NCBI GenBank assembly: GCA_964187785.1
Contig: OZ076409.1
Coordinates: 44,022,001 to 44,086,000, forward strand
Origin: Amphiscolops sp. MND2022
Lineage: Eukaryota
Length of the DNA: 64,000 nt
Direction: 5' to 3'
Notes under the pieces: model-generated
Seen by the model: the letters and a program-made list of their open reading frames with translations, nothing else
What the model was told of the DNA's origin: nothing
Database searches by the model: none
Position numbers and translations under genes: made by a program
Shown: positions 1,950 through 34,299 of the stretch, piece by piece
Position numbering within the stretch: position 1 is the first letter of the stretch
Layout of the letters: every line of letters begins with the position of its first letter

Positions 1950-3974
1950 CTGAAACAAAACTAGATGTTTTTTCATTCATGTTTTTGACTTTTTTATCTA
2001 ATATATCTTTTCTATGTTTTATGTACTTTGGAAATTCTCGGACAACTCTCAAACTGGTCTATATATTTTGACAGACGACGTTTGAGTCGGAAAAATTCAC
2101 TTCCCCAAAGATGATTTATGACCTTAGCAAACGCTACATTTTAAACAGAGACCGATTAATACACCACAAATTTATGAGAAACAGACAACCTAGCACGATT
2201 TTATTACTGATTGATATAATTTTAGTCGATTTTCATCTAGAACCACGAACTAACAATTTTCGATTTTTAATCTCTAGTCCATGTGGTACAGCGTCAGTCA
2301 TGCATGCTGAGAAAAGTTTTGGTAGAGTTTGTAAATTGCAAAGTCAAAAACTGCTTATTGAACAATCGAAGTGAGACAAAATTTTAATTCTGTGGCCTCA
2401 ACTTGTTTCGCGGAAGCTCGCATGACTATCCTTCCATTAATGTGAGCATGTTTCCCTAGATTCTGAAAAACCAATGCACAACGTCAACTGTTGGATTCCA
2501 CACAAGATATTTTATCTGCACGTTTTTTCAATGTTTTTAGAAATGATACAGCCATAAAACAACCAAAACATCACAGACTCTACAGGAAAAAAATACAAGG
2601 ACGCATTAAAGCTACAATAAAAACCAACTGGTGTTCATTAGGAACTTACAAAATGGAGATTGATGGTAAATGCAGCAATGTACCCATCTTCTTACACGCC
2701 AATGGAAAGACGACCATGCTGGTGAAAAAAATCTGTTGCTACACATTGTCGCATTTCATGTTCATTTTCCTTTGTTAAACACAGACTGAAAATGTTAAGC
2801 GGGACAACGAATACACAACTGATTTTAACGCGAACATCAACACAGCGACAACTAAAGTCATACTTGCATTCTGAAAAGCAAAGTAGGGATATCTTTTATC
2901 AACTGAAATACGTCCTGTTTTCATCCGTATTAATAGAAGTTTGGCAAAAAATGTATATATTTTCATCGACAAAATCAAAGACTCTCTGCTCTCGAAACGC
3001 CTGAAACTAAAAGCCCATAAAACAGGTCAAAATGTTTTGAGCATGCAGTCTAAATTAATGCGGTCTATTACATGTTGTCGACGACTGGTAGGCCAAATAC
3101 CATTGATTGGCCTAACACCATTGATTAAGAATGTATCTGTTGAAAAAATTGTCGTGGAGTACTAGCAGCTTCTAGTATCTTTACATAAAATGCCTTCCGT
3201 AAGAATGTGTCATGTCATTTCCTGCTCTAGGAATGAGCCCCCTCAACGTATGGGCTCATTCATATATCTGCAACTGCAAAATACCGTGAAAATGAATATT
3301 ATCTACAAAAATAGACTTCATCTATCATTTCCACGGAATTTTTTTGATTAAATCATTCATAAAAACTTCCAGAAGCAAGTTTTAAAACTCCAAACTGATT
3401 TCATGATTTTAAAGAAACTGATAGCTGAAGTTTTGTATTTAAAAACAAGGCGAACTTGCTTCTACGTTTTACGTTAGCTAAAAAATCAAATAACAGCAGA
3501 TTTAGATTTTTTAGCTTCAACTTTTACGTAAAACGCAAATTACCTCGGTTATAACGTCAAAAATTCGGATGATGAAAAACCCGCATTCGCAAATTTTATA
3601 GAAAACCCGCCGATTTTTGGTGTTAACAGATGAGACTGGAGTGAAGTTTACCATTGATTGAGTTCTCCATTCGAGTTTTCTACCCAAAAAACTGTTCTTC
3701 GCAAAAAAAAACGTCAAAGAGGTGTCGACTGACAGGACTTCGCTGATGTTTTGCAGCACAAACCGTGAAAAATGAATACCTTGAACAGTACCAGTTATAG
3801 ATATAGTCTTGCGTTTTCATGGATTGGTTTCCCAACAAGTTAATGCGCCCATGCACACGGTAGACATTCAGTTTTCCCCGAGGAAATGGGCATTGACTGG
3901 CTGTCTTACAGTACAGATTAGAAAGCCACAAAAGGCGTATGGGCTGTTGTCAAGAAAAGACTGGCAAAACAGTT

Positions 3975-4309
3975 ACTTATATCTTCACTTTTAAGATGAG
4001 TATTTATGGCTGGCGGCTGGATGCAGGAATGGAGAGCAGTCAAGTCTTCGGAACATGGATCACAATCCTCAGATTAGTTCTCTCTTTTCTTATTGAAAAC
4101 ACAACCATGCAATTCTCTAGTTTTTGTCAGCACTGATGTTTTTTACTTCATAAATATTATTATAGTTATTTGTTCAAAGATAGATGCTGATTAAATAGTT
4201 AAAAGGTTAAAGTTCTGTCATAGGTAAAATAGTTTTAAGGTCAAATATTTAAGAGTTCTTTCAATCAGTTCTTTTGTCCTCAACATAGGAATGTTTCAGC
4301 TATGTTACA
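3975..4309 (-). repeat. 3' LTR (335 bp)
   Basis: No differences found by eye versus 17895-18229. Minus-strand termini TGTAAC...ATAAGT. Confidence 0.95.
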
Positions 4310-4321
4310 CTTCCTCTCATC
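4310..4321 (-). promoter_or_regulatory. Polypurine tract
   Basis: GATGAGAGGAAG immediately 5' of the 3' LTR on the minus strand. Confidence 0.8.
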
Positions 4322-4647
4322 GAGAAACTTCCGGCATCTGGAAAAAAGCCATCATACAGTCGGAGGAGTAGTGTAGTGGAGATTAGAAGCTGAAATTGCC
4401 AAGTTGAGTAGTCCACTTCCAATAATTCCATTGAAAGAGCCCAAGAGAAAAGTTTTGGAGAGCAGCACAAGTCCCAGTTTCATGTAGTTGTGATGAAGTT
4501 GTATATTTGATCCAGTCCAGTTGAATATTGTCGAGCCAAAGATTACTGCATTTATAATTTACATATACTGCAGAAGAAAATATATTAAAGGATTTGTTTT
4601 GATAAAGTTCGATGATGAATGAATAATTAAACTGAAGGATCGTGAAG

Positions 4648-6993
4648 TCAGGCAGTGATATCGACATGAACTGCCTCAATATCGCTTTGATCATGAACCA
4701 TTTGAGCAGGCCTAACTTGGGAGTTGCTATGTGGGACTATTAATGATGAGTGAAGGTTGTTGGCTGATTGGCAATCTTTGGATTGGGTCGTTGCTTGTTC
4801 AAACATTGAACTTGACATTATAGAGACTTTTGGTTTTGAACGTGAAAGATGATATATTGTTCCAAATTTTTTTTGAAATTTATCCTCAGCATGAGAGTCA
4901 GTTGTTTCCAATTTCATCACAGGTTTAGCGCGAACTCTTTTTTTGTTTTTATCAAGTAAAGATGGAAACAGTTTTGATGCCAAATTGTATCGATGATAAA
5001 TATACATAAAGATCAAGTGCAAAGCTGTCGATACAATGAACACAGTTAATGTCAGCATGAATGAAATTCGGAACGGAACGTATTGATTAAATTCTTTCGT
5101 TAAGGCTGGTTTCAAGAGTTTCATTTCTGATGCATATGGTCTGGCAATGTCGATCATGTGTTTGACTTCACGATTCTTTGGTCCTTTTGCTAACTGTAGC
5201 TTTACCTCTTTCAACAATTTCACTCCTGCTTCAGCTTTCGATGTGTAGAACGGTAATTCATCCAAAGGGGGGACTTCCATAACCAATGAAGCTATAGGAT
5301 TAGGCAGAGAAACTTGCAATTTTATTGATGGAATGTGAGCGCAACTTGATAAATCAGATCGGATTTTGATGTTGTCAGTCATAATTTGCATTCCACATGC
5401 TAAAGTGATGAGACATATGCGGCATCCGCGAAAAGAAGAGCCCTGAACAGATGAAGATGAAACTTCACGAAGGGTAACGGCGTGAGCGGATTGAATTAGC
5501 CAAATGCCATAGCCTAAGTTTGTTGCTTGTTCGATGGCAGGCAGTTGTACAATTGTAGTATCACATACTGCAAGAGCCTCTTAAGCTGTACTAGAATATA
5601 AAGTAGCGAGGCAAGATGAATGACCCATCTCTGTTGGAACAGATTCTGAACAGATTCGGTAACGAGATGAGCCAAGACAATGCTCAAACTGTTCAGCAGA
5701 GAGGACAGATGACTCCATGTGATCCTCCGACAAAGCTAAATATGGGGCTTCGATGTTCCATGTAAGAGCCGACTGAGGATCGTCTGGATACGGCATCGGA
5801 ATTAATTTGGCTTCATATACAGTAAAAACCGTCTGCTTAGATGCTAGCGGGATGTTTAGGGTCATCAAAAGACCTGCTTTAACCGTAATAGCATCTGCTA
5901 AGAGCTTGGAATCGAAGTAAGATAGCAAATCTGACATTGGAATAGCTAAAGACAGCCTATCCTCAGCCGTCGTCTGTGTCATAGCAACACTTCTAAGAAT
6001 AACCAGCAATGATTCTGTCGGTACTAAGGACATAGGTAAATGACCTCTAAGTATGACAGGAATCGAGTTTAGGATGTTCATACGGAATGCAAATAGCGCT
6101 GCGCGATAGCTCTTTACACTTGCATGTATCATTGCTAAGAGAGAAGAAAGGGTGTCGAAATTAAAGTTCAGTTGCTGGTTCGAAAATAGAAGCTGATTGC
6201 AGTCGCGAAGCACATGGAAATTGTGTTCGAAGATGTCAAATTGTTGTTGAATAATATTCCAGTTCGTATCCTGCGTTGCAACAAGTTCCCTTTGGATGTC
6301 GTGAAGGGCCGCCAATTCGTTTTCAACCATAAAAAATTTTTTGTCCGTAGATGTTGTAAATTCAGTTACATACTGGGTTAAAACGTCCTGGAAGTCAGAT
6401 AGTTTGCGAATGTTCTCGGCATTTGCCTTCGCATCGTCTTGGCAGGAACCAAAAATGCCTTGTAGTCCACAAGAGTCGGAACTACCAAGAGCCACTCCTC
6501 CTCCAAAAAGGCCGACTGCGGCAAGAGCCGCTAGTCCCACTTGGGATCCACGTCGGTGGCGAGTATTCCGCGGCTGTTGAGGAGGGGAAAGAAACATTGC
6601 TGTTTCATTGCGTAGGAGGGCAACATCGAGTTCCGCGGTGTGGATTTCATTTTCTATTTGATGTAACATCCAGGTGACATTGAACGGCGTGGAATTCGTT
6701 GAAAAGTGACTTGAAAAATCCAAGGGACAAAAAACAGATGGAAGTTCCCACATCGACGCGAGTTTGGCCATTAAGGCCACAATATCTGGTTTAAGTGCGA
6801 AGTCATAAGTCGGAAAGGGAACTAAAAATTCGACTTTTATAAATTTCTCCGCAAGCAAGATTTTGCTGCGTTCATGGAACAGAACACCCTTTTCTTGAAT
6901 TTCGTTGGGGTTATTGGAAGCTTCTAAATTAGAAAGCCACTCACTTTGAACTGAAGCAGGGGTGAAGAAAACCAGTAAGAACAAAACTAACAT
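4648..6993 (-). CDS. env: Envelope glycoprotein, class I fusion (F-like), ~781 codons, one in-frame TAA at 5581-5583
   Basis: Signal peptide MLVLFLLVFFTPASVQS; furin site RHRR (6561-6550) followed by fusion peptide GSQVGLAALAAVGLFGGGVALG; heptad region; Cys-rich region; TM ISFMLTLTVFIVSTALHLIFMYIY; cytoplasmic tail. ORFs 5581-6993 and 4648-5391 share a frame with 63 open codons between them. Confidence 0.88.
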
Positions 6994-7378
6994 TGATCCG
7001 TTTTGTTTTTTGTTTTTGTGTTTCCCCCTTTTTTTGATATTGAATAAAAGCGAAGAATTCTCGAATGAATACTATATCAACTATTTCGATCGATTTCAAA
7101 TGCAAGAATGGCACTTTGGGTATTTTTGGGGGCGGGGTTTGGGGATTTTTGAAAGATCACAAGAAATGTGATGCCATTTGTTTTCAGTATCCGGTGCCCG
7201 TTTGATATTTACAAAATTCGAGATGTTAAAGTTTGTTTTGCCAAGTCATGTTTACTGCACTGGTTGTTTGACCTGTGATTGAAAAGTCAGATTTTCGAAT
7301 TCGGACGATTGAAAGTGATCATGAAATGAACGGAATGTTTATTCAGTTGTCAAGCGTTTATCCGAGTTTTTTAGTAAA

Positions 7379-7792
7379 ATGAAAATTCTGAATGTGCTGG
7401 CGGCAATCTGCGTTTTTGCTATAATGGAAGCATGCATGCAAAAGGAGTGGAGAGGGCACAGAATAACGTGTTGTGCTAATGGAACGTCAATGGAAACACA
7501 TACAGGGCAAAAGATTTGGGTCGCGCAGAGGCCTGCTATCTGTGATGTAACAAGTGCCAATGAAAAGTCCGCCAAGTCCAAGAGCTCAAAAATTCTCAAA
7601 GGCTTGATCATCCTTGGCACGTTGATGCTCTGTGCAGGCTGTTGCTTAAAAAAATTTCCTTACCGAAAAGTGTGGCAAATGCTATCAAAATGTTGTGCTT
7701 CGAAAATCGATGGTACAGAACAAGAAGGCATCGAAATCAAAGTAATCAAAAAGGAAGCAAGTCCAAAACTGGCACGCAGTCAGTCTTTTTAG
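7379..7792 (+). CDS. Antisense accessory ORF, 137-aa predicted type I membrane protein
   Basis: ATG start, signal-like MKILNVLAAICVFAIMEAC, Cys-containing ectodomain with NGT sequon, hydrophobic ILKGLIILGTLMLCAGCCL followed by basic KKFPYRK. Confidence 0.65.
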   Translation: MKILNVLAAICVFAIMEACMQKEWRGHRITCCANGTSMETHTGQKIWVAQRPAICDVTSANEKSAKSKSSKILKGLIILGTLMLCAGCCLKKFPYRKVWQMLSKCCASKIDGTEQEGIEIKVIKKEASPKLARSQSF

Positions 7793-8153
7793 ACTAAATC
7801 AGAAAACGAGTTTTGTTGTATTTACGTCGTCGTAAAAGTACTGAAAGTTTCGTTACATGTACTCGCGTAATGATACAGTTAACCGTTTGTTACTTTTGTT
7901 ATGTTTGTTTTAAGGCACGAGTTTTAAATTAAAACTTGCAAATTCGATGCCCCTCTTTTTTTTTATTTTTTTTTGAAGTGCAGCAAAACATAAGCCAAAA
8001 TTATTTGAAGCAAGCAAATTAGTAGAGAGGAAAAGCTATTGAAAGAAAACGGACAATATTCGAAAATTTAAACTGACAAGAGAACCGTTGAAATTAGTCA
8101 AGGTAGAAACAAATGGAAGATAACTGAAGGTTATACATGATAGGCGGAAATGT

Positions 8154-8438
8154 TCAGACAGTTTGATAAGCATTAAGCAGAGTCTTCTTCAGCTGGCGAA
8201 ATTTGATGAGTGTCCTCAAACCGCCGAATTTCGGGACAGGGAAATCCTGTCTTTGAAATAGAAGGACAATTTCAATCCATTTAGGGGAACCGTAGTCCAG
8301 CTGCTGCAGCGTTCCATCTGATAAGATTAACGAAATACTCATGAGCTCGTCAACTTTGATACGGATGATTGGGTAGTCTGCGCCATTATGCATACACGTC
8401 CATGTGTAGTGAAACGTAAACTCCATGTCGTTAAGCAT
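8154..8438 (-). CDS. Small element-sense accessory ORF, ~94 aa, unknown function
   Basis: ATG at 8438 (MLNDMEFTFHYTW...), globular-looking composition, divergent from the + strand gene starting at 8673. Confidence 0.4.
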   Translation of the reverse strand: MLNDMEFTFHYTWTCMHNGADYPIIRIKVDELMSISLILSDGTLQQLDYGSPKWIEIVLLFQRQDFPVPKFGGLRTLIKFRQLKKTLLNAYQTV

Positions 8439-8672
8439 GGTGAGGGCAAAAGAGATTACTTGAAGGTAGTATGAATGCTTTAAGACAACTGAGAACAAGG
8501 GTGGCAATAGCAAATAATGAATGGAAGAAAATGTCAATCTAAACGTTCGAATAAGAATCATCAGTCGAAATGTCACGCAAAGAGATCATGTTTTGTTTGT
8601 TGCGCACTGGTGACCTTTTGTAATTTGCAAAGCAAACAAACAAACAAAGTAAATTGGATTTCAGAGAGCAAG

Positions 8673-9964
8673 ATGGAACAAACTATGTTTGATGCGATTA
8701 TAAAAATGAAGGCAACTGGTGAAATAAATGCGTTAGTCTGTCAAACAAGGAAACAGAAATTTTTGTGGAAAACTCGGCTCAGTTTCTTCACTCTCAGCAG
8801 TACGGGTGAGTTACTATGGAATGGTCTAAAAGTCCCAACAACAGAGGAGCTAACACTAGTGTTATGGCCTTTTCATGAGACTGAGAAGAAACACGTATTA
8901 GACGAAAAGGTACTACGTAAAGTCTTATCAGACAAAGGATACGCCCTACCTACATTCATTGGGGGCCTTGAACGAGCGGTGAAAGTGTAAGTAATAATTA
9001 ATATGAAAGTCATCAAAATTTAGCATAGATTCACATGGTATTCCATGACTTCAGATTTCTTCACGATTGTCCGGAATGCTTTTGGACAAGGCATGAGGGA
9101 TACCGATGGGAAAGGGCGGCTAGTGTATCAATAATGGAGCGACAAGATGCCTGTAAAAGGTTTGCCCTGACGTGGGAAAAGTTGCAAGATGGGCCAGAAG
9201 GTGGAGGGTTAGTCGGTTTAGGTGAACCTCCTGTCGCATCCTGCAAATCTGTTTTTGCGCAGGGTGGAGGAAAATGCTGGGCATCGAGTATATTTTTCCT
9301 ACTGACTGGGAAAAAAAGCGGTTAGGTCGAAAAACAAGATTTAAAATAAGAAAATTGCTGTGAAAGCCAGGTGACTTTTTTGTTGCAGATAAGAAAAAGG
9401 ATGGTGCGGCACTGAAACGCATCAGAGATACGATCGGAAATCATATGAAAACAGATGAATTTAAGAAGTCATGCGTGGAATGTTTGGATTATGCTCCCAA
9501 TGAATTCGAGCTTGATGCTATGCTGCGATCGAATTTGGACATTAGTGAACCTTGGGTAAAAAACTTTTTGAGAATTTTGAAGAATGTCAAATGATTTATG
9601 GAGAACATATGATTCATGATGTTCTAGATGTTAGGAACTGCACAAGTGTTAGGCTGGGACATCTTGGTGTTCTGGCGTTACACTGTCAAAAAAGGTTGGA
9701 TTCGGTACCCGGCAAAAGCAAGAGGCCCATCATCAAGAGTTGCTTTCCTATTCCATGTGATCCATTCGGAAAAGGAGAAAAAATTCCACTGCGAGCCGTT
9801 GATAGATTGGCCCATTGAAAAGTAAGTATTGACACAAAAGAAACAGGTAAAGTAAGAAAAAGAAGATAATTTCGAAATATGTATGTAGCAACGATCCAAC
9901 GTATAGAGGGAGGGAGGCAGGCGAAGGGCCATCCGCGAAGAATGCGAGAAAGTACTGGAACTGA
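8673..9964 (+). CDS. Antisense spliced accessory gene: HHCC zinc-binding motif plus OTU-like cysteine protease, 338 aa; exons 8673-8986, 9055-9320, 9389-9555, 9628-9821, 9889-9964
   Basis: Four GT-AG introns of 68, 68, 72 and 67 nt, all phase-compatible, give a 1017-nt ORF. Motifs: H-x5-H-x35-CPEC; GGGKCWASSIFFLLTG; LKRIRDTIGNHM; GTAQVLGWDILVF; FHCEPL. Confidence 0.8.
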
Positions 9965-10428
9965 TCATTGCATCGACTGATTATCATAGTCAATATCATC
10001 AAAACTAGTCATCTCAGAAAATTTAAGAGTGTTTGTGTTTCAAATGTGAAGGAAACTAGGAGAAAAGCAAGTAGGAAGCGTGCGAGCGTAGCAGGATCGA
10101 TTGCGGCAATAGGGAGGCCACGCAATTCGGCGAAACTTGGAGAAATCCCTTCAATGAGTGACGGCGGCGAAGGTGTCAAATAGGACGCGGAAAAAATATT
10201 TTTTATCTCCGATTCTACAAAGGAGGGTACCAAACGAAAGAACAGCACATTCTAAGACCTACCACCGAAAATGTAGGTTCAATGCGATAATTTAACAGCG
10301 AAAAATGCCCTTGCAAGAGGTCGATTTTCGAGTTTTGTGTGATCTTGTTGCATTGGATTGTAAAGAATAGCCTGGATCAGCGTGAAGTGGGCTGGAAGGC
10401 ACTGCACAAACTCAAAGCAGTACTGCTA

Positions 10429-13400
10429 TTAACGAGAAGGCTGAACAATTGTGATTGTAATCTGAGACTTTGAAAAAATACGATATAAAATCGAAAAAAC
10501 AGTTGGCCAATGTAAGCGGTCACGACCACTTCCAAGTCTTGGAATGCTGAGCTTTCGAATATTAGAGCGCTCTAGATGCTGACGCAAGGCCATCAAGCTC
10601 AATTCAAGCGATTCATACGTAGATTTATGAAAGAATCTTGTTTTTGTGACTAAGTTATAGATGTAACGTTGATTAAATCGGTCGAAATAAGAGACAAGTG
10701 ATCCCTGCGGTAAACGTTTTTGAGCCTGAGAACGTAGTTGACGAAGCTCCGGGTTACGATATGCGATTGCAGAGGCAAGGCCTCGCTTCATATGAAAATC
10801 TGCTGAAACACAGTGAGCAATAGATTCAGGAGATTCTAAAATATTCGAAGAGAAACAAAAGTTTGGATGAATGTCTGAAGAAATAGAATTTAAAACATTG
10901 GATGAGGACAGTCTTTTCTTCAAATTACGGAAATTATAGCGTGCTTTTACTTCCTTTTGATGCTGTAGATACTCCTGAGGAGATTGCGGTGTCAGCTGTT
11001 GCGCTGTAGTTGGGTGGACCCGTGGACTTGCATCAGAAGGAGGTCGAGTTCGTTGACAAGATTCAAGTAAGATCGTGCGCTTATCTGCTTTTGGTAAGCT
11101 TGTCCCTGGGACCTGAGTCAACTGTGTTCTATGTGGAGGTTGTCCGTAAGTTTTTGGTCCACGTCCAATAAATACTGGAACTGTTTGACGGTTCTCATCA
11201 AAACTTAGTTGTCTATCAGTTCTACGTAAAAGAGTAGTCGGAGTTTTCGGACTGACTGTGGGTAGGTCTTGCTCTGGCGAGGCAGTTATGAAGGCACCAG
11301 CGGATTGTGCAGAATCTTCATTAGAAGAGTCATCTGAAGAAGCCCGAGAATCCGTGGGCTCAGCTGCAAGTTGCGCTGGTGGTGCCGTATCCTCGTCCTG
11401 GGCTGGCAGAGCGGGAAGCGCTGGAGCCGCTGCTACAGCTGGTAGGGGTGGAACTGCCGGCCCTGGAGCTGGTCCTACCGGAATAACAGCTGGTGCGATA
11501 GGAAAACTAAGAGAAACTGTGACCGGTGGAGGCTGTTCTTCGTTTTGAACTACACAAGGCGCCTCTGAGGGAGGCAACAAAAGTGTTGGAATGCTTTCAT
11601 CAAAAATAGCTGGTTCGCCTCTGAAGCGTCCAAGCATAGGATCGCGTTGAAATTTATCCGGGTCAATTTGCTGTAAGTCCTCAACTTGATATTGCGGTAC
11701 GACGGGTCTAAGACGAATGCGATGTACGCATTGAGTGTAGTTTGTACCGACCTTACGAATTATGTAATTAGAATTCGTTAAGACTTGTTCGACTCGATAC
11801 AATGGTAACCAAATAGGAAGGAACTTACTCGAAAAATCAGACTGCGTCATTAGTTTTGGATTCAAAAGAAGACAAAAGGAAAACTGTTTCAGAGGTTGCG
11901 CTTCTGCTTTGTAATCATAATATGCGCGGTATCTATTATACATTTCAGTCAATTTACTTTTCGCTTCGGAAAATTTTTGTAACATGGCGTCCTGCAATGC
12001 AAGCACATATTCTGTAGTAGGTTGCTCACGTTCAAGCGAAGTTTTATTAAACCTGAGATCCAATGGTTTCAAGGGTTCACGACCATGAAACAATGCGGTC
12101 GGACTTGTCCCTATTGCAAAATGGTAAGAAGTATTGTGAATAAATGCAGCAAGTCGCACGTATTTGTACCAGTCATTCCACTGCTCTGTGGTGTTCAACT
12201 TCAAAATTCGTTTGAGGGCGCTATGCGAGCGCTCCACACTACCTACAGTTTGAGGGTGTTTTAGACTGGCATGTTCCAATTTTATTTCCAAAAGTTTAGT
12301 CAATTCGTGCATCAATTCACTCACAAAAGTAGTACCCAAGTCGGATAAAATTGTTTTTGGAAGATAACTATGACGGAAAAATATCGACGCAAGTTCTCGT
12401 GCAACCGTTTCCGATCGCCCATTAATAAGTGGGACTGCGAAAAGATATTTTGTAAATACATCAATACCCGTAAGGACATAACGGTAGAGCGGGGACTGTA
12501 ACGGACCGACAAGGTCAATTTGTAACATTTCGCCCGGGTAAGATTTCAATGAGGAGACCGGTTGCAACGGAGTTTTCAGATTTTTGCTTGGTACACGTTT
12601 CAGTTGCAAGCATTGTAGACAGTTTTGGATAGTTGACGTTAAGTATTCTGTAAAATTCCGAAAATAAAAGCGTTTTCTAAATTCTTCAACCGTTTTATTG
12701 ATACCCATATGGCCTGCTGTAGGCGAGTTATGCAAGCGGTAAATTACTTCGCGCCAAAGGGATTTAGGAACACAGTACTGTTTGTGTTGAACTTTGCCTT
12801 GATCGTCATAAAAAAGTCGATAAAGAACATTTTCCTCAATGATTAGGCGCGGAAACTGTTTACGATATTTTCGCAAAGCTATCGGTAAATTTGGCGACAT
12901 GTCCGGCGAACCTCGGTCTTTCCATTGCATTACTTCACGAATGATCTCGTCTTGATTTTGTACTAATGCGAGGTCTATTGGCTCCGACCGATTAGGCAAA
13001 TCATCAAGAATGTCACTAAATTCGCCTGACGAGACTAGGTTTATTTGATTCACTTGACAAAATGAGTAAAATCCGGTTATTTCGAGAGACGGTTCCGTCT
13101 GCGCTTCAGTTGTTTTCTGTAAAAATTGTTCATACAGACCGAATTCTTTCAACTGAGAAATTAAGCGTTCATCAGCCTTGTCGTCTATGGCTTCTGGAAA
13201 AGTTTGTCTACTTGAAATATTAGATAAAGCGACATCCGGCGCTTTCGCTTCTTTTTCTATTTCAATCTCTTTAATAGGTATCCGATCAGTCAATTTAAGA
13301 GAAAGAGTTAAAGAAGGGTCGGTTTGCATTCGTGATAAAAAATCTGCTGCCGAATTTGCTTTACCAGGAATATGAGCAAGGAGAATGTTAAAAGACAAAA

Positions 13401-15924
13401 CTCTATCCAAACAGTTCCATAGCGATGGGTGAATACTTTTAGATTGGAAAAATTGCGTGAGACTACGGTTATCGGTTAAAACTAGCACAGGTTTAGTGGC
13501 GCCCCATATAAAATGTGCAAAATGATCTAAGGCGAAATAGAGAGCAAGAAATTCTTTATAGTAAACCGAAAATTTCAATTGCGTCGGACCAAACAATCGA
13601 GATCCAAAGGAGACCGGCGCGTATACTTTTTTTTCTTTTCCTTGTTGATCTAACAAGTAGTCCTCAATCATGAGAACAAAACCTGTACCATGATAACTAG
13701 CGTCACAAAGAAGAACGTATTGGAGGCCAGGTTTGGCCAATCGCAAAGTAGAATTGGTAGCATTTCGTAAATCTGTTTTCAATACATCTAATGCTTCGCT
13801 ATGTTCTTTCGTGGTTTTAAATTCTACATCTTTTCGCAAAAGTTTATAAAATGGTAGCAATTTTTGACCCAAGTTGGGCATGAATGAACGGAAAAATTGG
13901 ACAAATCCGATCAATCTCTTCACTTGTTTAACTGTTTCTGGCATTCTGATTTTTTCGAGGAATTTGTTTATTTTGTCTGCTTCAGGTGAGATTCCTTTAG
14001 GAGTTATAGTGCTTCCCAAATAATCAATTTTTGTTGTCCCAAATTCGCATTTGTGAGCAGACAATTTTAATCCCGATGCTCGCAGGCAATCAAATATTTT
14101 CTATAAAGCAGGAATCATTTCATCAAAGGTGTTTACTCCCATGGCAATGTCGTCCATGAATTGAGTACAAACATTGGCAGCAAGACATTTATCTAGATAA
14201 TGTTTGACGAACGAACTAAATCCAGTGACGGATTTGTTCAGGCCTTGGGCTAAACAATTATAAGCAAATGTGCGCGAAGCGAAATTAAATGCCAACAATT
14301 GTACCGAAAGGTCATCCGCCATTTGAACGCAATGGTATGCTTGCGAACAATCAAGTTTACAAAATAGTTTCTTCCCCGCAAAGTGGTTTGTCGCATCGGT
14401 CATGTTTGAAATTGGGAAATTGCTATTTAAGTAATCATGGCGTAGGAGGTGATTGACTCTTCTGAGATCAATAAGTATGCGAAGCTTGCCAGATGGTTTG
14501 CGATGTACAAATATCGGACTAGAATATTTGGAATGTGACAGCGTAGTTATGATGTTAAAATATTGTAATAACGCCAATTCAACTAAGATTTCGTCACGCA
14601 AATGAATCGGTGCTGGTGGACCTTGAACGTATACCGGAAGTTGATGAGCAGGCGTTAATTTGATCTTCAATTCGGTATTATACCCAACATCGAAGCGATG
14701 TTTTGCAAACACGTCATGATATTCAACAAGAAAATCCTCCAATTTTGACTTTTCATCAGCGCTCAAAACACATGTATCCCACGCAAATTTTTTCAAAAAT
14801 TCTTGTCTATCGTGTAAATTAGTTTTTGGGTTTAGTTTTTCACAACGACGAAGTTGCAGAATTTGATCGTAAATTTCACGTTGAAGCGGTGACAAATTTG
14901 AAAGATCCGTACATGTTTCGGGAGTCGGAAACCAAAGTTTTGAGTAATCTGGTGGCGGCCGACCATTGTCAGTGTCGAATTTTTGAAAATGTATATCGTG
15001 AATTAGCTGATTGAGTTCGTTTTCAAAATCGTCAGGGTTTCTCATTTTTGCTAGGGCCAATAATTGTGGATCTATTTCAAGGAGATAATCGGCCTGTGAC
15101 TCGCGCAAAATTTCAAAACGTGCAATTTGTTTTTTGCTATTTAGCGTAATCTGGGAATCAGACAAATTGATCGCTGATATGTATATTTTATTGTCATTAT
15201 CCATCTTGCTCAGAGACGAAGTTAATGCAATATTGGCTGTTTCCTCCAGATTCTTGTTTGGAATTACTAATCCTGTGCAATTAGCAAACTGGTCAGTATA
15301 TTCATCCAAATAGCATTCAAGGAGGACTTGTTGTTGCGGTCCAATATTTACTTTTTTGCTCAGTAGGATAGGAATATTTTTCATTTTTTTTACAAATTGT
15401 CGTTTTTTCCCAGCGTCCGGTTTCATTTCATTGAGTTGAACTGTAAAATCAGGCAGTTTCAGTAAGTTGTTTTTTGGGTCGATCGTAATATTTTGTTTTT
15501 TAAAGAAAGAGTTGCCCAAAATTACACTATTCATTTTTGGTAGCACAAGAAAACTGTCGGTAAAGGAATGAATTCCAATACAGAATGTGAGATTCACCTG
15601 ATTGTCAACTGACACTCGTTGTCCTGAAGCCATGCGGACAGACGTAAAATTTGGAGTTTCATTTTTAATTAATTCAGGATGATTCGCTCGTAATTCATCG
15701 TATAAATTTTGTGGCAATGCATTAGCACAGGCGCCAGTATCAATTAGGGCTCTCCGGCGAATGTGCGGAGAAAATTTTAATTTAACGTAAGAAAGATTTT
15801 CACCTTCAAGAGGCAAAACAGCGCATATATCTGGCTCATTTAATTCTATGTTACGTGTGTGGGGCTCATAAGACTGGTTTTCATGTAGAGAAGTAGGCGG
15901 TGGAATCTTGTGCTGCTTTTTTAG
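10429..15924 (-). CDS. pol: Pol polyprotein (PR, dUTPase-like spacer, RT, RNase H, integrase, Pro/Ala linker, macrodomain); one in-frame TAG at 14101-14103
   Basis: ALIDTGA (protease), FMDD (RT), LLCDAS / TDNRSL (RNase H), H..H..CLQC plus IDLVG, SDLGT, VER (integrase). The two listed ORFs share a frame and are separated by one stop and 12 open codons. Confidence 0.95.
10432..10860 (-). other. TARG1/OARD1 (Poa1p-like) macrodomain at the Pol C-terminus
   Basis: SIAHCVSADFHMKRGLA...RYIYNLVTK..FFHKSTYESLELSL...LSIPRLGSGRDRLHW..V..I...F....ITI, collinear with TARG1 SLAHCISED.RMGAGIA...RYIYYLITK...HKPTYENL..SL...LSMPRIGCGLDRLQW. Confidence 0.88.
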
Positions 15925-17189
15925 TTTTTTTGATTTTGATTGAACGGCATTTGAGCTCCTCGTTGTGGAGGGTTACCTTGCGCGGTACAATCTTTTGCTA
16001 GATGATTCGGATATCCGCAATTATAACAAGTATGTGTTGATTGTTGCGTATAAGGCATGTAATGCGGATCCGGAGTAAAAACTTCAAATGTAGTTTGCGA
16101 TGAACCTTGATTAGAATTTCCTTGTTGAAAGTTGTCCTGATTCGGATTTGACCATTGTTGCTGGCTATTTGGATTCTGATTAAAATTCGAGTTTTGGTAA
16201 TTTTGATTCGACTGATTGTAATTTCTGCCGTAATTGTTCTGCCAAGGTCGTCCACGCCCTTGGTAACCTCGACCTCGGTTTCCACGGTTATTGCCGCGAT
16301 ACCGACCACGGTAGTTTCCTCGATTTCCGCGATAGCCTTGGCCACGATAGTTTTGAGAGCCGCGTTGCGAATTGTTTTGGTTTTGCTGGTTTTGTAACTG
16401 AGTGGTAAAATTCGTAGCTTGCGCTTCTAGTTTTTTGGACATTTCGTTCAGTCTATTGTCCATAGTTTCTTGACTATGGCTCAATTTTGTGAGAGCTGTA
16501 ACTAAAGTATCAGATACTGAAGGGCGCACTTCACTGAAAGCATCCATAACCGAATCTTCAACCTTACAAAGGTTATAGATCGAAAGTTGTTTCCGAGCGA
16601 ATATACACAAATCTTCAACCGTTGTATTTTCCGGTTGTTCCAAAAGTTTCGCTCGAAGCCAGCCCGGCATATTTTTTATAAATTGTCTCCGAATCTGAGC
16701 GGAGCGCGCTTGTTGCGCTGAATGAATTATTTCGGCTCTTCGGGCGGTTTCAGAATCAAATCGTGTTTGTTCCACTGCTGCGTCCGGTGCGGCACCATCA
16801 ATTGGTGCTACAGCAGGTGGATTTGGATCGGGATAAGCTTTAAGTGCTTTCGTTTGTAACGTGACTAAAAAATTCTCTGGATTGTCTGTTTTCGGATCGA
16901 ATTTCAAGTTTTCCAATTTAAGCATATGCAATTCCTGAAGTCTCGGATTACAAAAATGGTCACGAAGAGCTGTCAAAGAGAGATCTAAGTCCGCACGTGT
17001 CGCTACCGGTAGTGTTTGAAAATAGCGGAGCGCAGCGTCTCGAAGATGAAGTTGTAAAAAGTTGGCTTGCTGCGCTTGCGGTACCGCAGCTACTGCTAAG
17101 ATACTTCGCAACAAATGTTCAAATTCACGAAAATTTTCCTTTTCTAAACCCGAGTAGGGTGTTAGCGAGAGTTGAGGTAAAGCAGCCAT
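15921..17189 (-). CDS. gag: Gag, 422 aa
   Basis: ATG at 17189 (MAALPQLS); capsid-like helical region, R/G/N/Q-rich tract, zinc knuckle CYNCGYPNHLAKDC. Confidence 0.92.
   Translation of the reverse strand: MAALPQLSLTPYSGLEKENFREFEHLLRSILAVAAVPQAQQANFLQLHLRDAALRYFQTLPVATRADLDLSLTALRDHFCNPRLQELHMLKLENLKFDPKTDNPENFLVTLQTKALKAYPDPNPPAVAPIDGAAPDAAVEQTRFDSETARRAEIIHSAQQARSAQIRRQFIKNMPGWLRAKLLEQPENTTVEDLCIFARKQLSIYNLCKVEDSVMDAFSEVRPSVSDTLVTALTKLSHSQETMDNRLNEMSKKLEAQATNFTTQLQNQQNQNNSQRGSQNYRGQGYRGNRGNYRGRYRGNNRGNRGRGYQGRGRPWQNNYGRNYNQSNQNYQNSNFNQNPNSQQQWSNPNQDNFQQGNSNQGSSQTTFEVFTPDPHYMPYTQQSTHTCYNCGYPNHLAKDCTAQGNPPQRGAQMPFNQNQKN
15924..15930 (-). promoter_or_regulatory. -1 ribosomal frameshift slippery heptamer A AAA AAC
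   Basis: Directly before the gag TAA; the -1 frame is open from here into the protease. Confidence 0.8.
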
Positions 17190-17882
17190 GATTTTAAAAG
17201 TTAAGTGTGAAATAGAGAGTGACGAATAAAACAAACTAAGATTGTAGTGAAGAAAAAATTGAAAAATTGTCTAGCAAAGTGTGTAAAATGCAGTCGAACA
17301 CTGACGTGTAGTTTGAACTTCGAAAACTGAACAACGAATATAAAACTTTCAAGGCGAAACAAGAAAGGTTTGAGATCAAATTTATAGTGTTTTTGCAACA
17401 ATAACGATTTGCAGTGAAAAGAGAAAATTTGCAATTGGAAAAAAGTAAAAAGATTGCAGAAATTCACAGTTGAGTTTCGAAAAGAGTAATAGCTGTGAGA
17501 CACAGTTCAGTTGAAAATGAAAACAATTGAAGCACTCATGAAATTCGAAAACTACACTATATCACTTTACTGCTTCAGAAGTGAATCAGACTCACCGACT
17601 GTATTCGTACTGGCATTTTGAAGTCATCATGAAATTGAATACAAATATCGGAGCATCAACATTCGCCCAATTGGAGAAAGTCACCAAAATTCATCATTGA
17701 TTTCTGTAGTTTCCAGTTTCTGCCGTGCCGTGTTTGTTTCAGTTGTTACAGCCTCATGGATCGGGTGCTGGTCGTGGATGATGTGGCTGGAACACCGCGG
17801 GTGGTTGGTCGGGGGTCTCGTGTGAGCGTTTCAACACAAAAAGGAGAGTTCTTCTCTGTATTGCATAGTGAGGATTGTTTTG

Positions 17883-17894
17883 CTCCTGTCACCA
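17883..17894 (-). promoter_or_regulatory. Primer-binding site TGGTGACAGGAG (possibly tRNA-Leu type)
   Basis: TGG start immediately after the 5' LTR; the same 12-mer follows the 5' LTR of the second Gypsy (53338-53349). Confidence 0.8.
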
Positions 17895-18229
17895 ACTTAT
17901 ATCTTCACTTTTAAGATGAGTATTTATGGCTGGCGGCTGGATGCAGGAATGGAGAGCAGTCAAGTCTTCGGAACATGGATCACAATCCTCAGATTAGTTC
18001 TCTCTTTTCTTATTGAAAACACAACCATGCAATTCTCTAGTTTTTGTCAGCACTGATGTTTTTTACTTCATAAATATTATTATAGTTATTTGTTCAAAGA
18101 TAGATGCTGATTAAATAGTTAAAAGGTTAAAGTTCTGTCATAGGTAAAATAGTTTTAAGGTCAAATATTTAAGAGTTCTTTCAATCAGTTCTTTTGTCCT
18201 CAACATAGGAATGTTTCAGCTATGTTACA
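17895..18229 (-). repeat. 5' LTR (335 bp)
   Basis: Direct repeat of 3975-4309, followed by the PBS. Confidence 0.95.
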
Positions 18230-18582
18230 CAGTTTCTTGAGAAAATAGGAAAAAAGTTCAATAAATGTAGAATTTCGCCGAATTTGAGGTGGTCCAAAAC
18301 GGTTTAGTATTATTTCACCCCACGTTCATTTCACCCCAAATTCATTTCACCCCACGTTCATTTCACCTCACACTTAAATTATCAAATGCCTCTCAGATAA
18401 ATGACTATTGCCACCCAATTTCAATCTAATAGAAAAGCGTCTTGGTTCTGATTACCAAATAGACACAGAGGCGAAGCGGTGCTTCGCAACACATGACGAA
18501 GACATCGATTATTTTAATATGCGTATATATATTATTTTAATCGCATGCGTATATATTCAACAGTTCAACTTTGTTCAATAAC

Positions 18583-19806: not shown

Positions 19807-20045
19807 CAGTAGGCATCAAAGTTTAATTGTTGATTAACGTGAGACGCTTTTGTATAATTACAATATGGTGTGAAATAAAAGTGGGGTGAAATTAATGGGG
19901 GGTGAAATGAACGTGGGCTGAAATCATATGGTGTGAAATGAAAGTGGGGTGAAATGAATGTGGGGTGAAATGAATGTGGGGTGAAATGAACGTGGGGTGA
20001 AATGAACGTGGGGTGAAATGATTTTGGGTGAAATGAACGCACACC

Positions 20046-20837
20046 GTCCAAAACCTCTACGAGAGCATTTCTAGCCGTTAGAAATCAGTTGTAGCTAATA
20101 GTACACAAATTACACATTTGTTTCATATTGTTTCCCAATAAAATTCATGCCGTAGTCAACTTTTTGGAACTATACTGTGTCAAAGTATTTAGAAACAATT
20201 TTGCTAAAAAAAAGAAAGCTTCTTTGGATTTCATTAGGATTATGTGGAATTTTATTCTGAACTTCTAAGGACAGTGATTAAAAAGTTGGAAAATCCAAAT
20301 TTACGACTAAAATTCAAAAAGCAGTTTTCGAAAATTAGGCAATGTTCCAATGAACGTTTTCGCTGAAGCCAGGACTAAACAAGATGGGAACGTCTGAAGT
20401 CGGCGCTATACCTAAGGCTCACAAATCGCCCAAATATGGGCATATTTGGGCGATTTGTGAGCCTTAGGTATAGCGCCGACTTCAGACGTTCCCATCTTGT
20501 TTGGTCCTGGCTTCAGCGAAAACGTTCATTGGAACATTGCCTAATTTTCAAAAACTGCTTTTTCAGTTATTTTAGTCGTAAATTTGGATTTTCCAACTTT
20601 TTAATCACTGTCCTTAGAAGTTCAGAATAAAATTCCACATAATCTTAATGAAATCCAAAGAAGCTTTCTTTTTTTTTAGCAAAATTGTTTCTAAATACTT
20701 TGACACAGTATAGTTCCAAAAAGTTGACTACGGCATGAATTTTATTGGGAAACAATATGAAACAAATGTGTAATTTGTCTACTATTAGGTACAACTGATT
20801 TCTAACGGCTAGAAATGCTCTCGTAGAGGTTTTGGAC
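20046..20837. repeat. Near-perfect palindrome, ~395-bp arms, 2-nt spacer
   Basis: Centre CGCCCAAATATG-GG-CATATTTGGGCG (spacer 20439-20440); arms are reverse complements with a few substitutions/indels. Confidence 0.95.
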
Positions 20838-22150
20838 GCTTTAATGAAAAGCTGGAAGAAAAAATTTGAAATACCCAAAGATGGCTTTTCGTGCTCGGAG
20901 AACGCTTCAGAAGTTCGGATATAGCGTGCTAAGACAAATTCAAGCGCTTGTTTTTGAGCCTCCGCCTTCTCCTTTTGAAGGTGCATAGTGCCGAAAAATC
21001 TGAAGGGGGATTTTCTAAGAAAATCCTTTCAAAACAGTAAAAAAAATTACGGAAATCTCACAAAGCCGAAAGGGGGACCCTTCTGCTTTGGAATGGTTCA
21101 GTATTTCTTGTTAGAAGCTTTGGATGTGTTCACAACCAAGTACTGAGTACTTATGGTAAAAGTGTACATAGTTCGCAAATAGTGGACCACTCAGAGTGAG
21201 GCTGACGAAAAATGACCCTGTCAGAACAAAACTTCTCGTTTTGCGACAAAAGCGGCTGAGACATAATTCAAACTGTTAACCTTAATTAACATGGCTGAGT
21301 TCCAAAATCTGACTAGAAATTTTCAATCATTGATGTCTACACAGCTATGCATACCAAAGACATTAACTATAGCACGTTTGAAAGGTCTGGTGATAGGCTA
21401 TGATTTTGATTAGGTGAGCCCCAGTCGCCGCGCGCCTCATTCTTCAGAATTTTAGTTCCCTTTTGTAGTACCGCCGTTTTCAGGCCATTCCACACTTCGG
21501 GGAGTTATTAGCAACATCATTTGCTAATGCCTTTGCCGTTTACATCAAACTCGGTACCAACAAATGGTTGAATAAAAATGGTGCTAAAGAATATGGGCTA
21601 CTGGCAAAACAGATCAGGAGTTGAAAAAGGTAGGCTGTTTTAAAGTAGCGCTAGGCTATTTAGGGTTAAATGACACTCGCTCTTAGGGTTCCGGAAAATT
21701 GGAGATAAAAAGTCAAAATTTAACTAATGTTTTCGCATTGATGAAACAGAGGACGCTAGGTCTATATGTATTGCTGTTTTGAGGAGGAACTGTACGTGAT
21801 ACACTCATGAAAACAAGCGAATGCCTAGTGAGAAAGTGGCCGACTTATGTCGAGTAGCCTAACTGAAGTAAAGAGTCGAAGCATTTGTTCACATGCAGCG
21901 CTTTGCTTCACTAGTCAACTTAGTCCACATTCAATGGGAATGATACAGATTCGCAAAGAAATGTTCATCGCCCAAAAATATGCATTTCGCATCATTTATA
22001 TCAGCGATACATTAGCAATTGAGCTATGTGGGCATTCAATTGCATGCAAATAATTAGCATGCAAATAAAATTTCCAATGTAGCAAAACTTTTATAATAGA
22101 TACTATTTTGTTTGCAGAGAACTCTACGTAAAAAAGCATTATTTAATTAC

Positions 22151-23220: not shown

Positions 23221-26200
23221 GAATAGAATAGAATAGAATAGATGTTTCACAATCTAAGGCCGAAGCCTTTGGTGATTGGCTCATTGCTGTTTGGGTTCCC
23301 TTTCCATCGTCGTTTCGTATTTCAAATTTCTCCAGGTGTTGTCCAATTTCGCTTTAAAAACGTCAAGGGTTCCTGCCGACGTGACATCATCTGGCAGGCT
23401 ATTCCAGTCATTGGCTGCTCTTACAGTGAAAAAATTTCCTCTTGTTGATGTTCTCGATGGCTGCACCACAAGTTTTCTTTGATTTCCTCTTGTGATTCTG
23501 TCATTTTCCATCAGCATCCCTCCAGTGACTCTCTTATCAGGTTACCAGTCACTTGGCTTAATACCATTTGGCTTAATTTTTTCGTCGAGTCATTTGGCTT
23601 AAAAATTTTAAGCCAAGTGACCACAAAATTAAGCCAACTCCATTCCAACTCAAGGAATAAATATGTCAACTCCCGGAAATATCATAAAGTGGGGCATATG
23701 CGGTGTATGCACGCTCGCCCTCACCGTCGCAAAGACCAGCTCCCACTACGATCGCTTCGCGATCTTCGTTCCGCTAGGTCTTTGCTCCTGTTCGACCTCG
23801 CTTAGCAAGATGGAAATATAAGCGGCCCCAAGGGGCCGCAGGGCACTAGAGGAAATGGGGACATACCCGAGGGGTACTTGATATGACATGTTATAATAAT
23901 ACGCTGACTACGTTATAAAGATAAATTCGACAAAATCTGCCACGTGTTTTCAACTAAGTGGTTTTAAGTCAAATGACTTTTTAAGCCAAGTGACCAATAC
24001 CCGAGACACTTAGCTTAAAAAAATTAAGCCAAGTGACCAATTGTATTAAGCCAAGTGACTTTAAGCCAAATGGCATTAAGCCAAGTGACCATTTACCGTC
24101 ACTTTTTTTACCGTCACGGTTACCAGTCACTTGGCTTAATACCATTTGGCTTAATTTTTTCGTCGAGTCATTTGGCTTAAAAATTTTAAGCCAAGTGACC
24201 ACAAAATTAAGCCAACTCCATTCCAACTCAAGGAATAAATATGTCAACTCCCGGAAATATCATAATGTGGGGCATATGCGGTGTATGCACGCTCGCCCTC
24301 ACCGTCGCAAAGACCAGCTCCCACTACGATCGCTTCGCGATCTTCGTTCCCGCTAGGTCTTTGCTCCTGTTCGACCTCGCTTAGCAAGATGGAAATATAA
24401 GCGGCCCCAAGGGGCCGCAGGGCACTAGAGGAAATGGGGACATACCCGAGGGGTACTTGATATGACATGTTATAATAATACGCTGACTACGTTATAAAGA
24501 TAAATTCGACAAAATCTGCCACGTGTTTTCAACTAAGTGAATTTAAGTCAAATGACTTTTCAAGCCAAGTGACCAATACCCGAGACACTTAGCTTAAAAA
24601 AATTAAGCCAAGTGACCAATTGTATTAAGCCAAGTGACTTTAAGCCAAATGGCATTAAGCCAAGTGACCATTTACCTCTTATCATACACTCCATGGAGTA
24701 TCTTGTAAACTTCAATCATCCTACCCCGTTTCCTCCTGAAGTCCAGGGTGGGTAGGTCTAGTTTCATTAATCTTTGTTCATAAGGGAGAGATGCGAGAGA
24801 AGGGATGAGTCTTGTCGCTCGTCTCTGGACATTTTCGAGGTTAGTTCTGTGTTTTTGGAAATGTGGATGCCATGCTTGGTTACAATATTCCAAGTGGGGT
24901 CTGACAAGCGTCTTAATTAGCACACTCAGTGACTGGCAGTTCAATTTCATGAAACAATGAAACATTTTTTGATAATAGCAAGCATTGAATTCGCCTTCTT
25001 TATTTTTTCAGCAATATGCGAGTCAAAATATAGTTTGTGATCAGTTAGTACATCCAAGTCTTTTTCACATCTAACATTTTCCAACATCTTTGTTGTGTTC
25101 ATGAAGTAAGGTCTCTCAGTGGAGTCTTTGTTGTGAGGGTCATTTTCACGCATTTTTTCTCATTGAATTGAAGTAAAAAGCTACTCGACCAGCTTCCCAG
25201 CCTTCGGAGGTCATCTTGGAGTATTTTCTGATCTGCGTCTGAGTGTATTTCCCTGTAGAGCTTCGCGTCATCGGCAAACAGGTAAAGTTCTGACTCCACA
25301 GCTCCCGGCATAGAATTTATGTAGATCGTAAACAACACTGGACCTAATACTGATCCTTGAGGTATCCCGCTTGTAACATTCTGCCAGGTTGAGAAAGTGC
25401 CCTTGACTACTACCCTCTGTTGTCTCCCGGAGAGGAACGCTTTTATCCAGTTCAGAGTTTTTCCATTAATCCCATTTTGTTCGAGAATAGCTATGAGTCT
25501 TCTGTGTGGGACGCTGTCAAACGCTTTCCGAAAATCGAGGTACACTACATCTACTTCAACCTTATTGTCCAATGCCAAAGTCCACTGATCAAATATTTTC
25601 AGAAGTTGGAGAAGCCTTGATCTTTTTGACAAGAAGCCATATTGTTTATCACTCAAGATTTCATTATCTGTAAGAAATGTCATTTTTCTCTTTCTGATAC
25701 TTCTTTCCATTAGTTTGCAGGGGATTGAGGCCAGGCTCACTGGACGATAGTTGGTTGCCTCTAATTTATTCCCTGATTTGAAAATCGGCACTATGTTGGC
25801 CCGCAACCAGTCATCGGGTAGTATTGCAGTATTCCAGGATTCCGTCATGATTTGAGATAGGAGCGGTGCTATTTCAGACCCTATTTCTTTCAGTATCCTT
25901 GGGGAGATGTTGTCCACTCCAGCAGATTTTGCTGTATTAAGGGCATTAATTTCTTCAAGCACCTCTTTTTCAGTGAAAGTTATGTTATCTTCCATACATT
26001 TGTGCGTGGTGTTTATTTGCCAGAGTCCGGGTCCTTCATTTACAAAAACGGATTTGAAAAACAACGAGAGTTCTTCTGCTTTCTCCAAATCCGTTTATGT
26101 GAAGCTTCCATCTCGTTTGATTGCTGGAATCGTCTCTCTTCGTTTTGTTTTTTGGCTAACATAACTCCAAAATTTTTTGGGATTTGACTTTAGGTTATTT

Positions 26201-34012: not shown

Positions 34013-34299
34013 TCCAATTCGGCCGCCATCCATTCGATCCCTGTTATTCGATCAAAAGATTCGACCTCTGTCCTTTCGACCAGAAAAAATCTACCTATCT
34101 ACAGCCACCCGTCACGGGGTTTCATCCGCATCATTATTAGCACTTCCCGGCTTTTTGGCTACAGCCTTTGGTGCGAGTGACATCCTCACGACGATTTTCC
34201 CGGGGACATTCGAAGGTGTTTTGTTTACAAAAGCACTCAAATAAAGGTTGAGTTTGACAAATGAACAGAAAAGTCCTCTAGATGGATCCCAGAAAAATT

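Follow-up and report, generated by a model that had tools for sequence, protein, structure and literature searches.

An antisense gene for a predicted OTU cysteine protease is carried within a Gypsy LTR retrotransposon in the window, i.e., the whole stretch of 64,000 nucleotides that was analysed, and sequence comparison suggests that this gene is common to three element classes of one genome, namely to Gypsy, BEL/Pao and Maverick-like elements. It extends from position 8673 to position 9964 on the plus strand and its five exons join to 1017 nt, corresponding to 338 codons and a stop codon with no internal stops. It is very probably a functional spliced OTU-protease gene, and the best reading of its sequence and of the structural model is that it would encode an accessory deubiquitinase of a putatively env-bearing Gypsy element.

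The initial annotation had joined five frames across four GT-AG introns of 68, 68, 72 and 67 nt to an ORF of 338 aa, and the junctions as well as the lengths were re-derived from the sequence (Table 1). All four introns are of the GT-AG type and have a GC content of 26-34%. The putative catalytic Cys and the His with a Glu at position +2 (Cys179, His303 and Glu305) were found where they had been placed, and the motif H68-x5-H74-x35-C110-P-E-C113 is present and straddles intron 1. The basic tail encoded by exon 5 is a possible nuclear localisation signal.

Table 1. Features of the OTU gene and of the element that carries it; positions are those of the window.
Feature	Position	Strand	Remarks
3' LTR	3975-4309	-	identical to 5' LTR; purine tract precedes; left CAGTT target copy 3970-3974
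env-like ORF	4648-7071	-	signal-like start, RHRR site, hydrophobic peptide, C-terminal transmembrane segment
Second antisense ORF, 137 aa	7379-7792	+	signal-like and transmembrane segments; acceptor 4 nt before ATG
94-aa ORF	8154-8438	-	conserved; head to head with OTU gene
Conserved splice acceptor	8653-8664 (AG 8663-8664)	+	8 nt before ATG; absent from the initial annotation
Exon 1	8673-8986	+	codons 1-105; N-terminal helical extension and H68 (8874-8876), H74 (8892-8894) of HHCC
Intron 1	8987-9054	+	68 nt, phase 2, GTAAGT..TCAG; position and phase kept in 25/26 copies
Exon 2	9055-9320	+	CxxC (C110 9068-9070, C113 9077-9079), linker helix, OTU Cys loop, Cys179 9275-9277
Intron 2	9321-9388	+	68 nt, phase 1; kept in 25/26 copies
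Exon 3	9389-9555	+	OTU helical lobe
Intron 3	9556-9627	+	72 nt, phase 0; in frame, 3 stops; kept in 26/26 copies
Exon 4	9628-9821	+	OTU beta sheet; His303 9787-9789, Glu305 9793-9795
Intron 4	9822-9888	+	67 nt, phase 2; called in 20/26 models
Exon 5	9889-9964	+	short variable basic C-terminal tail, ends K..A+..W
pol	10429-15972	-	protease, dUTPase-like, RT, RNase H, integrase (H2C2, rve), C-terminal macro domain
gag	15921-17270	-	frame with CCHC knuckle
5' LTR	17895-18229	-	335 bp, then TGG primer-binding site; right CAGTT target copy 18230-18234

The host element occupies positions 3975-18229 (14.3 kb) on the strand opposite to the OTU gene and shows the features of a Ty3/Gypsy LTR retrotransposon, i.e., LTRs, primer-binding site, purine tract, target duplication, gag and the order protease, RT, RNase H, integrase. 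The identity of the two LTRs shows that this copy was inserted recently. It carries in-frame stops in the RT region of pol (14101-14103) and in the env-like ORF (5581-5583). The latter has no match in Pfam, PHROGs or PDB sequences, and its sequence features agree with those that PMC5408684 gives for class I fusion proteins. The macro domain at the C-terminus of pol (10429-10860, minus strand) was recognised with PHROGs (E 1.7e-19) and with Pfam Macro (E 0.083) and was not seen at the corresponding region of the related locus L058; the dUTPase-like stretch between protease and RT (approximately 15100-15360, minus strand) reached a Pfam E of 0.0016, which is below the cut-off. The OTU gene lies antisense between pol and the env-like ORF, a position also held in relatives with pol 48% and 73-93% identical. 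An opposite-strand pol was present in the short flanks of 23 of the 30 initial loci, some of which overlap, and in the other seven the adjacent antisense ORF alone was seen. Longer stretches around four diverged copies all revealed a Gypsy context, deleted or rearranged in two of them.

Two small ORFs accompany the OTU gene. In 17 further loci nearby the 94-aa ORF is 72-99% identical, compared to 34% in L059, and it has no Pfam or PHROGs match. The 137-aa antisense ORF is built like a small membrane protein of type I, has a basic tail, is 26-100% identical in most related loci and may be akin to small fusogen-like ORFs of LTR elements. Moreover, the modules of these elements diverge to different degrees: at L016, L022 and L025 the upstream DNA (compared to 7932-8672) is 84-93% identical and the OTU protein 58-59%, and at L020 the C-terminus of pol is 95% identical compared to 71% for the OTU protein. 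Module swapping was noted across L016, L022-L027, L019 and L020. Outside the element, the window holds a 794-bp near-perfect palindrome (97%; 20045-20838) of foldback or MITE-like type, an adjoining 16-bp tandem array (19846-20053) with an inverted copy at 18308-18395, and interspersed or tandem repeat families at 23537-24678, 33218-34014, 40383-41892, 53365-54911 and 56103-57059.

Copies of the OTU gene are numerous in the 1.07-Gb genome, with at least 150 matches to exon 4 (150 scored of 244 candidates) and at least 138 to exon 1 (150 scored of 201 candidates). With a protein-to-DNA spliced aligner, which uses no prior on intron position, 26 copies of the same genome were modelled, i.e., 12 of the 30 initial loci including the window's own and 14 diverged loci chosen from the exon 1 and exon 4 matches. 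Conservation of the splice sites across copies had been set beforehand as a test, and 96 of the 98 predicted introns fall at four common codon positions and phases in proteins that are 32-100% identical. Intron lengths range from 61 to 125 nt and 74 of the 98 are not a multiple of three. In the six models without intron 4 the alignment stops shortly upstream of it, and all six loci have a donor-like GT downstream of the His exon. At both loci tested the spliced alignment scored 313-316 on the gene strand versus 36-39 on the opposite strand. Models of three diverged copies (32-44% identical) recover exactly 3, 3 and 4 of the window's junctions, a recovery that is not fully independent because the diverged models were first built with the window protein. 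We infer from these sequences that the four coding junctions are used in plus-strand mRNA; the notion of an antisense intron-containing gene within a retroelement is borne out by its conservation across genomic copies.

The exons of the OTU gene are under purifying selection. The dN/dS ratio amounts to 0.08-0.31 in the 14 of 33 pairs without saturation, the identity of introns in diverged copy pairs is 0.41-0.53, and C179, H303, E305, H68, H74 and C110 are invariant in all 26 copies (C113 in 25). This bears on the possibility that the gene is a mere passenger, i.e., a nested Ginger transposon or a captured host gene decaying inside the element. Stops or frameshifts in 11 of the 26 models, which are expected because old insertions should carry them, as well as the introns, which point to a DNA-level origin, would fit a passenger. 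However, purifying selection persists up to the saturation of synonymous sites, the position is fixed in diverged elements, and there is neither a DDE core nor, within 7000-10600, a pair of terminal inverted repeats (arms of at most 27 nt, 78%), making a passenger highly improbable and already largely refuted. A nested transposon was rejected on account of the missing inverted repeats and the purifying selection.

As a separate observation, the OTU gene region is tandemly duplicated inside single loci (L011/L012 and L017/L018/L021). Outside this genome five close homologous proteins were found, which are exon-sized fragments. A search of 1.84 billion proteins with the family profile retrieved 153 proteins, most of which are also exon-sized fragments, and 7 of the 15 longer ones scanned exceed the OTU cut-off, among them the fragment P0150 described below.

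The conserved acceptor upstream of the start codon suggests that the annotation of the gene is likely incomplete at its 5' end and that a 5' leader exists. In 21 of 25 copies a strong acceptor is located 4-12 nt upstream of the ATG, compared to 7% of 795 background windows, and a comparable one precedes three of four BEL/Pao ORFs, the 137-aa antisense ORF and the Maverick-borne copy. The distance between acceptor and ATG is not constant in frame, and there is no conserved donor at a constant spacing, so that the acceptor may belong to a 5' UTR intron or represent a trans-splice site.

The assignment of the C-terminal domain to the OTU cysteine protease fold is supported by a structural model and by profile comparisons. 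The fold was predicted for a naturally occurring copy whose introns 2 and 3 are in frame; the model covers exons 2-4 with the introns read through (pLDDT 69, pTM 0.74), and its two longest low-confidence stretches are the read-through introns. A VIA structural search of 48,161 chains returned OTU proteases for all of the top 26 matches, with OTUD3 as the best (Z 9.7, rmsd 3.3, 121 aligned) and a Z of 3.0 for the first match outside the OTU family. The comparison with Foldseek, by which the initial annotation had wanted its OTU-like fold to be checked, points the same way, as all 37 matches shown are OTUs, though none reaches E <= 1e-3 (best E 2e-3). In the model the Cys opens a helix (72-84) and the His lies within a strand (241-246), and the Cys of the family aligns with the Cys of DGNC, suggesting Cys179-His303-Glu305 as the predicted catalytic site. 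Without recourse to the model, a comparison of the family profile with 12 PF02338 matches of the same genome gave P 1.7e-8 (reversed control 0.41). Pfam gave no OTU or H2C2 match in the five exons or in 17 further single-exon or read-through stretches of the family, a genome scan with PF02338 listed 24 matches, none of them at loci of this family, a PDB sequence search with the family profiles gave nothing relevant, and the Protein Atlas held no usable match for the Gypsy-borne or the BEL/Pao-borne form.

The deubiquitinases OTUD1 and OTUD3, yeast Otu2 and the nairovirus vOTU resemble the protein in their fold, in the Cys at the helix start and in the strand His with an acid at +2, but are only 7-16% identical to it and lack its GGxC loop and its integrase-type N-terminus. 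The Asp of the DGxC loop is absent from the window protein (GGKC) and replaced by G, V or similar residues across the family; BEL/Pao-borne homologues carry D, N or K at this position, and some of their copies retain DGNC. Reading GGKC in place of DGNC is a weak objection to activity, because the three residues of the putative site never vary and the Asp is variable also in the BEL/Pao homologues. The protein might nevertheless be an OTU-fold pseudo-enzyme or have another specificity (SUMO, NEDD8, ISG15-like or polyprotein processing) instead of being a deubiquitinase, in line with its long branch from other OTUs, the missing Pfam match, the GGxC loop and an additional invariant Cys downstream of the catalytic His. 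We consider this rather improbable, since all copies, at 32-100% identity, retain the Cys, the His and the +2 acid, which is rarely the case in a dead enzyme, and the BEL/Pao-borne homologue exceeds the PF02338 cut-off (27.2 versus 23.3 bits).

This homologue, first met as a PF02338 match in the genome, is an ORF of approximately 295 codons without coding introns and has 123 genome matches (117 scored of 160), of which many are incomplete and a few are spurious. It lies antisense directly behind pol in all nine BEL/Pao loci fetched, and the same arrangement occurs in one outside record found among 90 candidates. The pol of L057 contains Peptidase_A17, DUF5641, rve and H2C2, and the other eight loci match the L057 pol by tblastn. 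The Gypsy and BEL/Pao forms are colinear from end to end, the linker included (probability 98.2, P 5e-14), and their N-terminal parts alone match with P 8e-7 (reversed 0.41). A YP motif, which recalls the YPYY motif preceding the zinc finger of Ginger1, is present in all six BEL/Pao rows that cover its place and absent from the window protein, though the N-terminal parts align. Searched against PDB sequences, the BEL/Pao profile reaches OTUD1, OTUD3 and OTUD5 only at E 0.02-0.08.

The third carrier appears from its sequence to be a Maverick-like element, known here from one end and a polymerase frame. It bears a subfamily of the spliced gene in which introns 1-3 are present at their positions, at all three loci approximately 400 bp from a boundary ending in ACTACT; among the end motifs of vertebrate Mavericks, (ACT)2 at the 3' end is the most common (PMC8097293). 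Two of the three loci extend to a long frame with the family B polymerase motifs DANNLY, KxxxNSxYG and YSDTDS, for which Pfam DNA_pol_B is reached only at E 0.008. Intact Mavericks of vertebrates are reported to lack introns (PMC8097293). Tandem repeats of approximately 700 bp in variable number lie between the polymerase frame and the OTU gene (L067:2523-4250, L072:3847-5572, L073:7082-9901). In a quick tree of 39 OTU domains the Maverick-like copy nests inside the Gypsy-borne family (support 99 for the group), and the Gypsy and BEL/Pao forms make up separate clades, which are not joined as sisters, in an unresolved group together with the protein P0150; long branches meet in this group and no direction of transfer can be read from the tree.

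The N-terminal domain is probably integrase-derived as judged from its model and sequence, with weaker support than for the OTU domain. The N-terminus of foamy-virus integrase ranked first in both structural searches (E 0.68; Z 5.0, rmsd 3.5, 82 aligned); Ty3 integrase ranked second in one of them with Z 4.3, a value likewise reached by unrelated helical domains. The matched integrases stem from intasomes and align over residues 2-140 (foamy virus) and 3-115 (Ty3). Compared with three zinc-finger regions of Gypsy integrases the N-terminal profile gives a weak match (P 0.035), and Pfam gives no match for this domain. Thus, from the integrase-type HHCC motif that had been proposed initially the conserved ligands stand, and the fold match is top-ranked yet weak. 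The spacer of the motif (x35) is longer than that of the element's own integrase (x29). Approximately 60 residues separate the CxxC from the OTU Cys loop and the protein therefore has no DDE core.

An integrase-type zinc finger joined to an OTU domain recalls Ginger1, the transposase of which is ordered YPYY motif, H2C2, DDE, GPY/F and OTU or Ulp1 and often has 1-4 introns, with the OTU fused to the transposase itself and the transposon flanked by terminal inverted repeats of 40-270 bp and a 4-bp target duplication (PMC2836005). The gene described here is alike in the N-terminal H2C2 zinc finger, the C-terminal OTU and the 1-4 introns, i.e., it has the Ginger1-like traits of a C-terminal OTU and introns in the coding region; unlike Ginger1 (PMC2836005), it is a stand-alone gene inside other elements, DDE core and GPY/F are absent from it, and neither inverted repeats nor a 4-bp duplication are found within 7000-10600. 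The link to Ginger transposons made by the initial annotation gained weight, as the nearest OTU relatives include P0150, a fragment in which the C-terminus of an integrase and a GPY motif are combined with an OTU. The set containing P0150 and this family have in common a pre-OTU helix and a W-x-R-Y strand motif with P 4e-19, a value that is inflated because the set was picked by similarity to the family. This makes it probable, by a modest degree, that the OTU gene is a Ginger1-type transposase which lost its DDE and GPY/F middle and retained its introns. Since no complete donor was found, we infer this origin and do not observe it: a search for longer proteins with P0150 gave three Helitron-type proteins and no complete Ginger1 donor, one with the BEL/Pao profile gave no donor among 8000 scored, and in the genome itself, where 105 of 4492 candidates were scored, no single locus matched P0150 in both halves, each being a weak negative.

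Alternatively, zinc finger and OTU were joined independently in Gypsy and BEL/Pao, or the donor was a Helitron or Maverick and not Ginger1. The tree, in which Gypsy and BEL/Pao are not resolved as sisters and the nesting of the Maverick-like copy does not fix the direction of transfer, would allow for this, and so would the OTUs of Helitron proteins, which the family profile matches with P 2e-11. We regard it as unlikely: the two forms are colinear from end to end including the linker, which speaks against independent joining, and the GPY and OTU set, though selected by similarity, is a better profile match than the Helitron OTUs. In this genome OTU domains also occur within open frames of 2200-2800 codons, which are probably Helitron Rep-helicases (G000 C2:103.6-103.8 Mb, C13:25.89 Mb, C1:3.61 Mb and C5:22.69 Mb).

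Introns that are antisense to the genomic RNA are not spliced out from it and are copied at each retrotransposition. The introns of the OTU gene have this orientation and are therefore left unspliced in the genomic RNA, where they would be carried as inert antisense sequence, and kept through retrotransposition. The gene would have its own promoter for an antisense mRNA, which would be spliced and probably also carry a spliced leader at its 5' end, and the product of this mRNA would consist of an integrase-type helical extension and the HHCC zinc finger followed by the OTU cysteine protease. In the nucleus this protein might remove ubiquitin from a host or element protein and thereby weaken ubiquitin-dependent silencing or degradation, the zinc-finger part conferring binding to DNA or chromatin or self-association.

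RNA viruses use OTU and macro domains to counter host ubiquitin and ADP-ribose signalling. The chances that the OTU protein is aimed at a host target are about even; such a target fits better than the element's integrase because of the three kinds of carriers and the exchange between subfamilies independent of their neighbours. The gene might instead act on its own element, which is doubtful: the zinc finger would dock on the integrase or the LTR ends and the OTU would shield integrase or Gag from ubiquitin-driven degradation, or the protein would serve as a dominant-negative brake of integration. An action on the element is suggested by the best matches of the N-terminal model, i.e., the N-termini of foamy-virus and Ty3 integrases in intasomes, and by the fusion of OTU and transposase in Ginger1 (PMC2836005). 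However, homologues in Gypsy, BEL/Pao and Maverick-like elements as well as the swap at L020, where pol C-terminus and OTU protein differ in identity, argue that the partner is not element-specific, and targeting of the integrase is less likely because the integration machineries of the three carrier classes are unrelated. Returning to a host target, a broader scenario is put forward tentatively, as it is somewhat less probable than its opposite: a portable counter-defence gene, in which a core-less transposase became a deubiquitinase targeted by its zinc finger, was passed, within a single animal lineage, among three classes of selfish elements that are not related to each other, with its introns kept antisense and a spliced or trans-spliced leader, and acts together with the macro domain against ubiquitin and ADP-ribose signalling. 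The presence of the same gene in all three classes points to a common host pressure.

Ubiquitin pathways were proposed to be widely involved in transposition (PMC2836005), and the stand-alone protein of 338 aa makes this proposal directly testable. For the antisense ORF of an LTR element described here, the predicted enzyme can be assayed, a catalytic Cys can be named, a donor is plausible and over 100 diverged copies are available for comparison. Furthermore, it is a natural case of several spliceosomal introns kept in a reverse-transcribed genome over saturating divergence. In the literature covered, which leaves Repbase, subscription journals and supplements outside its scope, neither an OTU gene in an LTR element, be it antisense or spliced, nor a multi-intron antisense enzyme gene in an LTR element was found, and the term OTU occurs 0 times in PMC13524379, PMC5408684 and PMC6338049; elements of this kind may already be present in Repbase or in the element tables of PMC13524379.

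The plant and fungal LTR elements Grande, RIRE2, Retand and Boty have additional antisense ORFs (PMC7264820; PMC11963269), which were recognised years ago and have no known function and, according to PMC7264820, mostly no known origin. They are alike in that most copies have a conserved gene lying antisense in the interval from pol to the 3' LTR; the word intron is absent from PMC11963269. The gene described here differs from them in that it resides in an animal, codes for an enzyme fold, has four coding introns that are conserved and has an origin that can be traced to mobile elements. The ORF3 enzymes of bdelloid retroelements (GDSL esterase and DEDDy exonuclease) are likewise extra enzymatic ORFs common to unrelated retroelements, and bdelloid LTR elements also have a dUTPase between protease and RT and an env-like third ORF (PMC5408684). 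These ORF3s encode other enzymes, and their variation is described as not departing from neutrality (PMC5408684), compared to the strong constraint seen here. Unlike the bdelloid ORF3s, the OTU gene also reaches a DNA-polymerase element. The antisense genes HBZ and APH-2 are spliced, and they are not known to be enzymes of the OTU kind or to have a sequence relation to the OTU gene. They are retroviral antisense regulatory genes within an LTR element (PMC11963269). The OTU domains of Helitron RepHel proteins are of a similar transposon-borne type and are fused into the Rep-helicase polyprotein (PMC6431247), whereas a separate antisense gene is present here. As a summary, every ingredient, i.e., antisense ORFs, shared ORF3 enzymes and OTU domains in Ginger1 and Helitrons, has a precedent (PMC7264820, PMC11963269, PMC5408684, PMC2836005, PMC6431247), and the gene is best filed as an antisense accessory gene that is OTU-deubiquitinase-like and not as a Ginger1 transposon.
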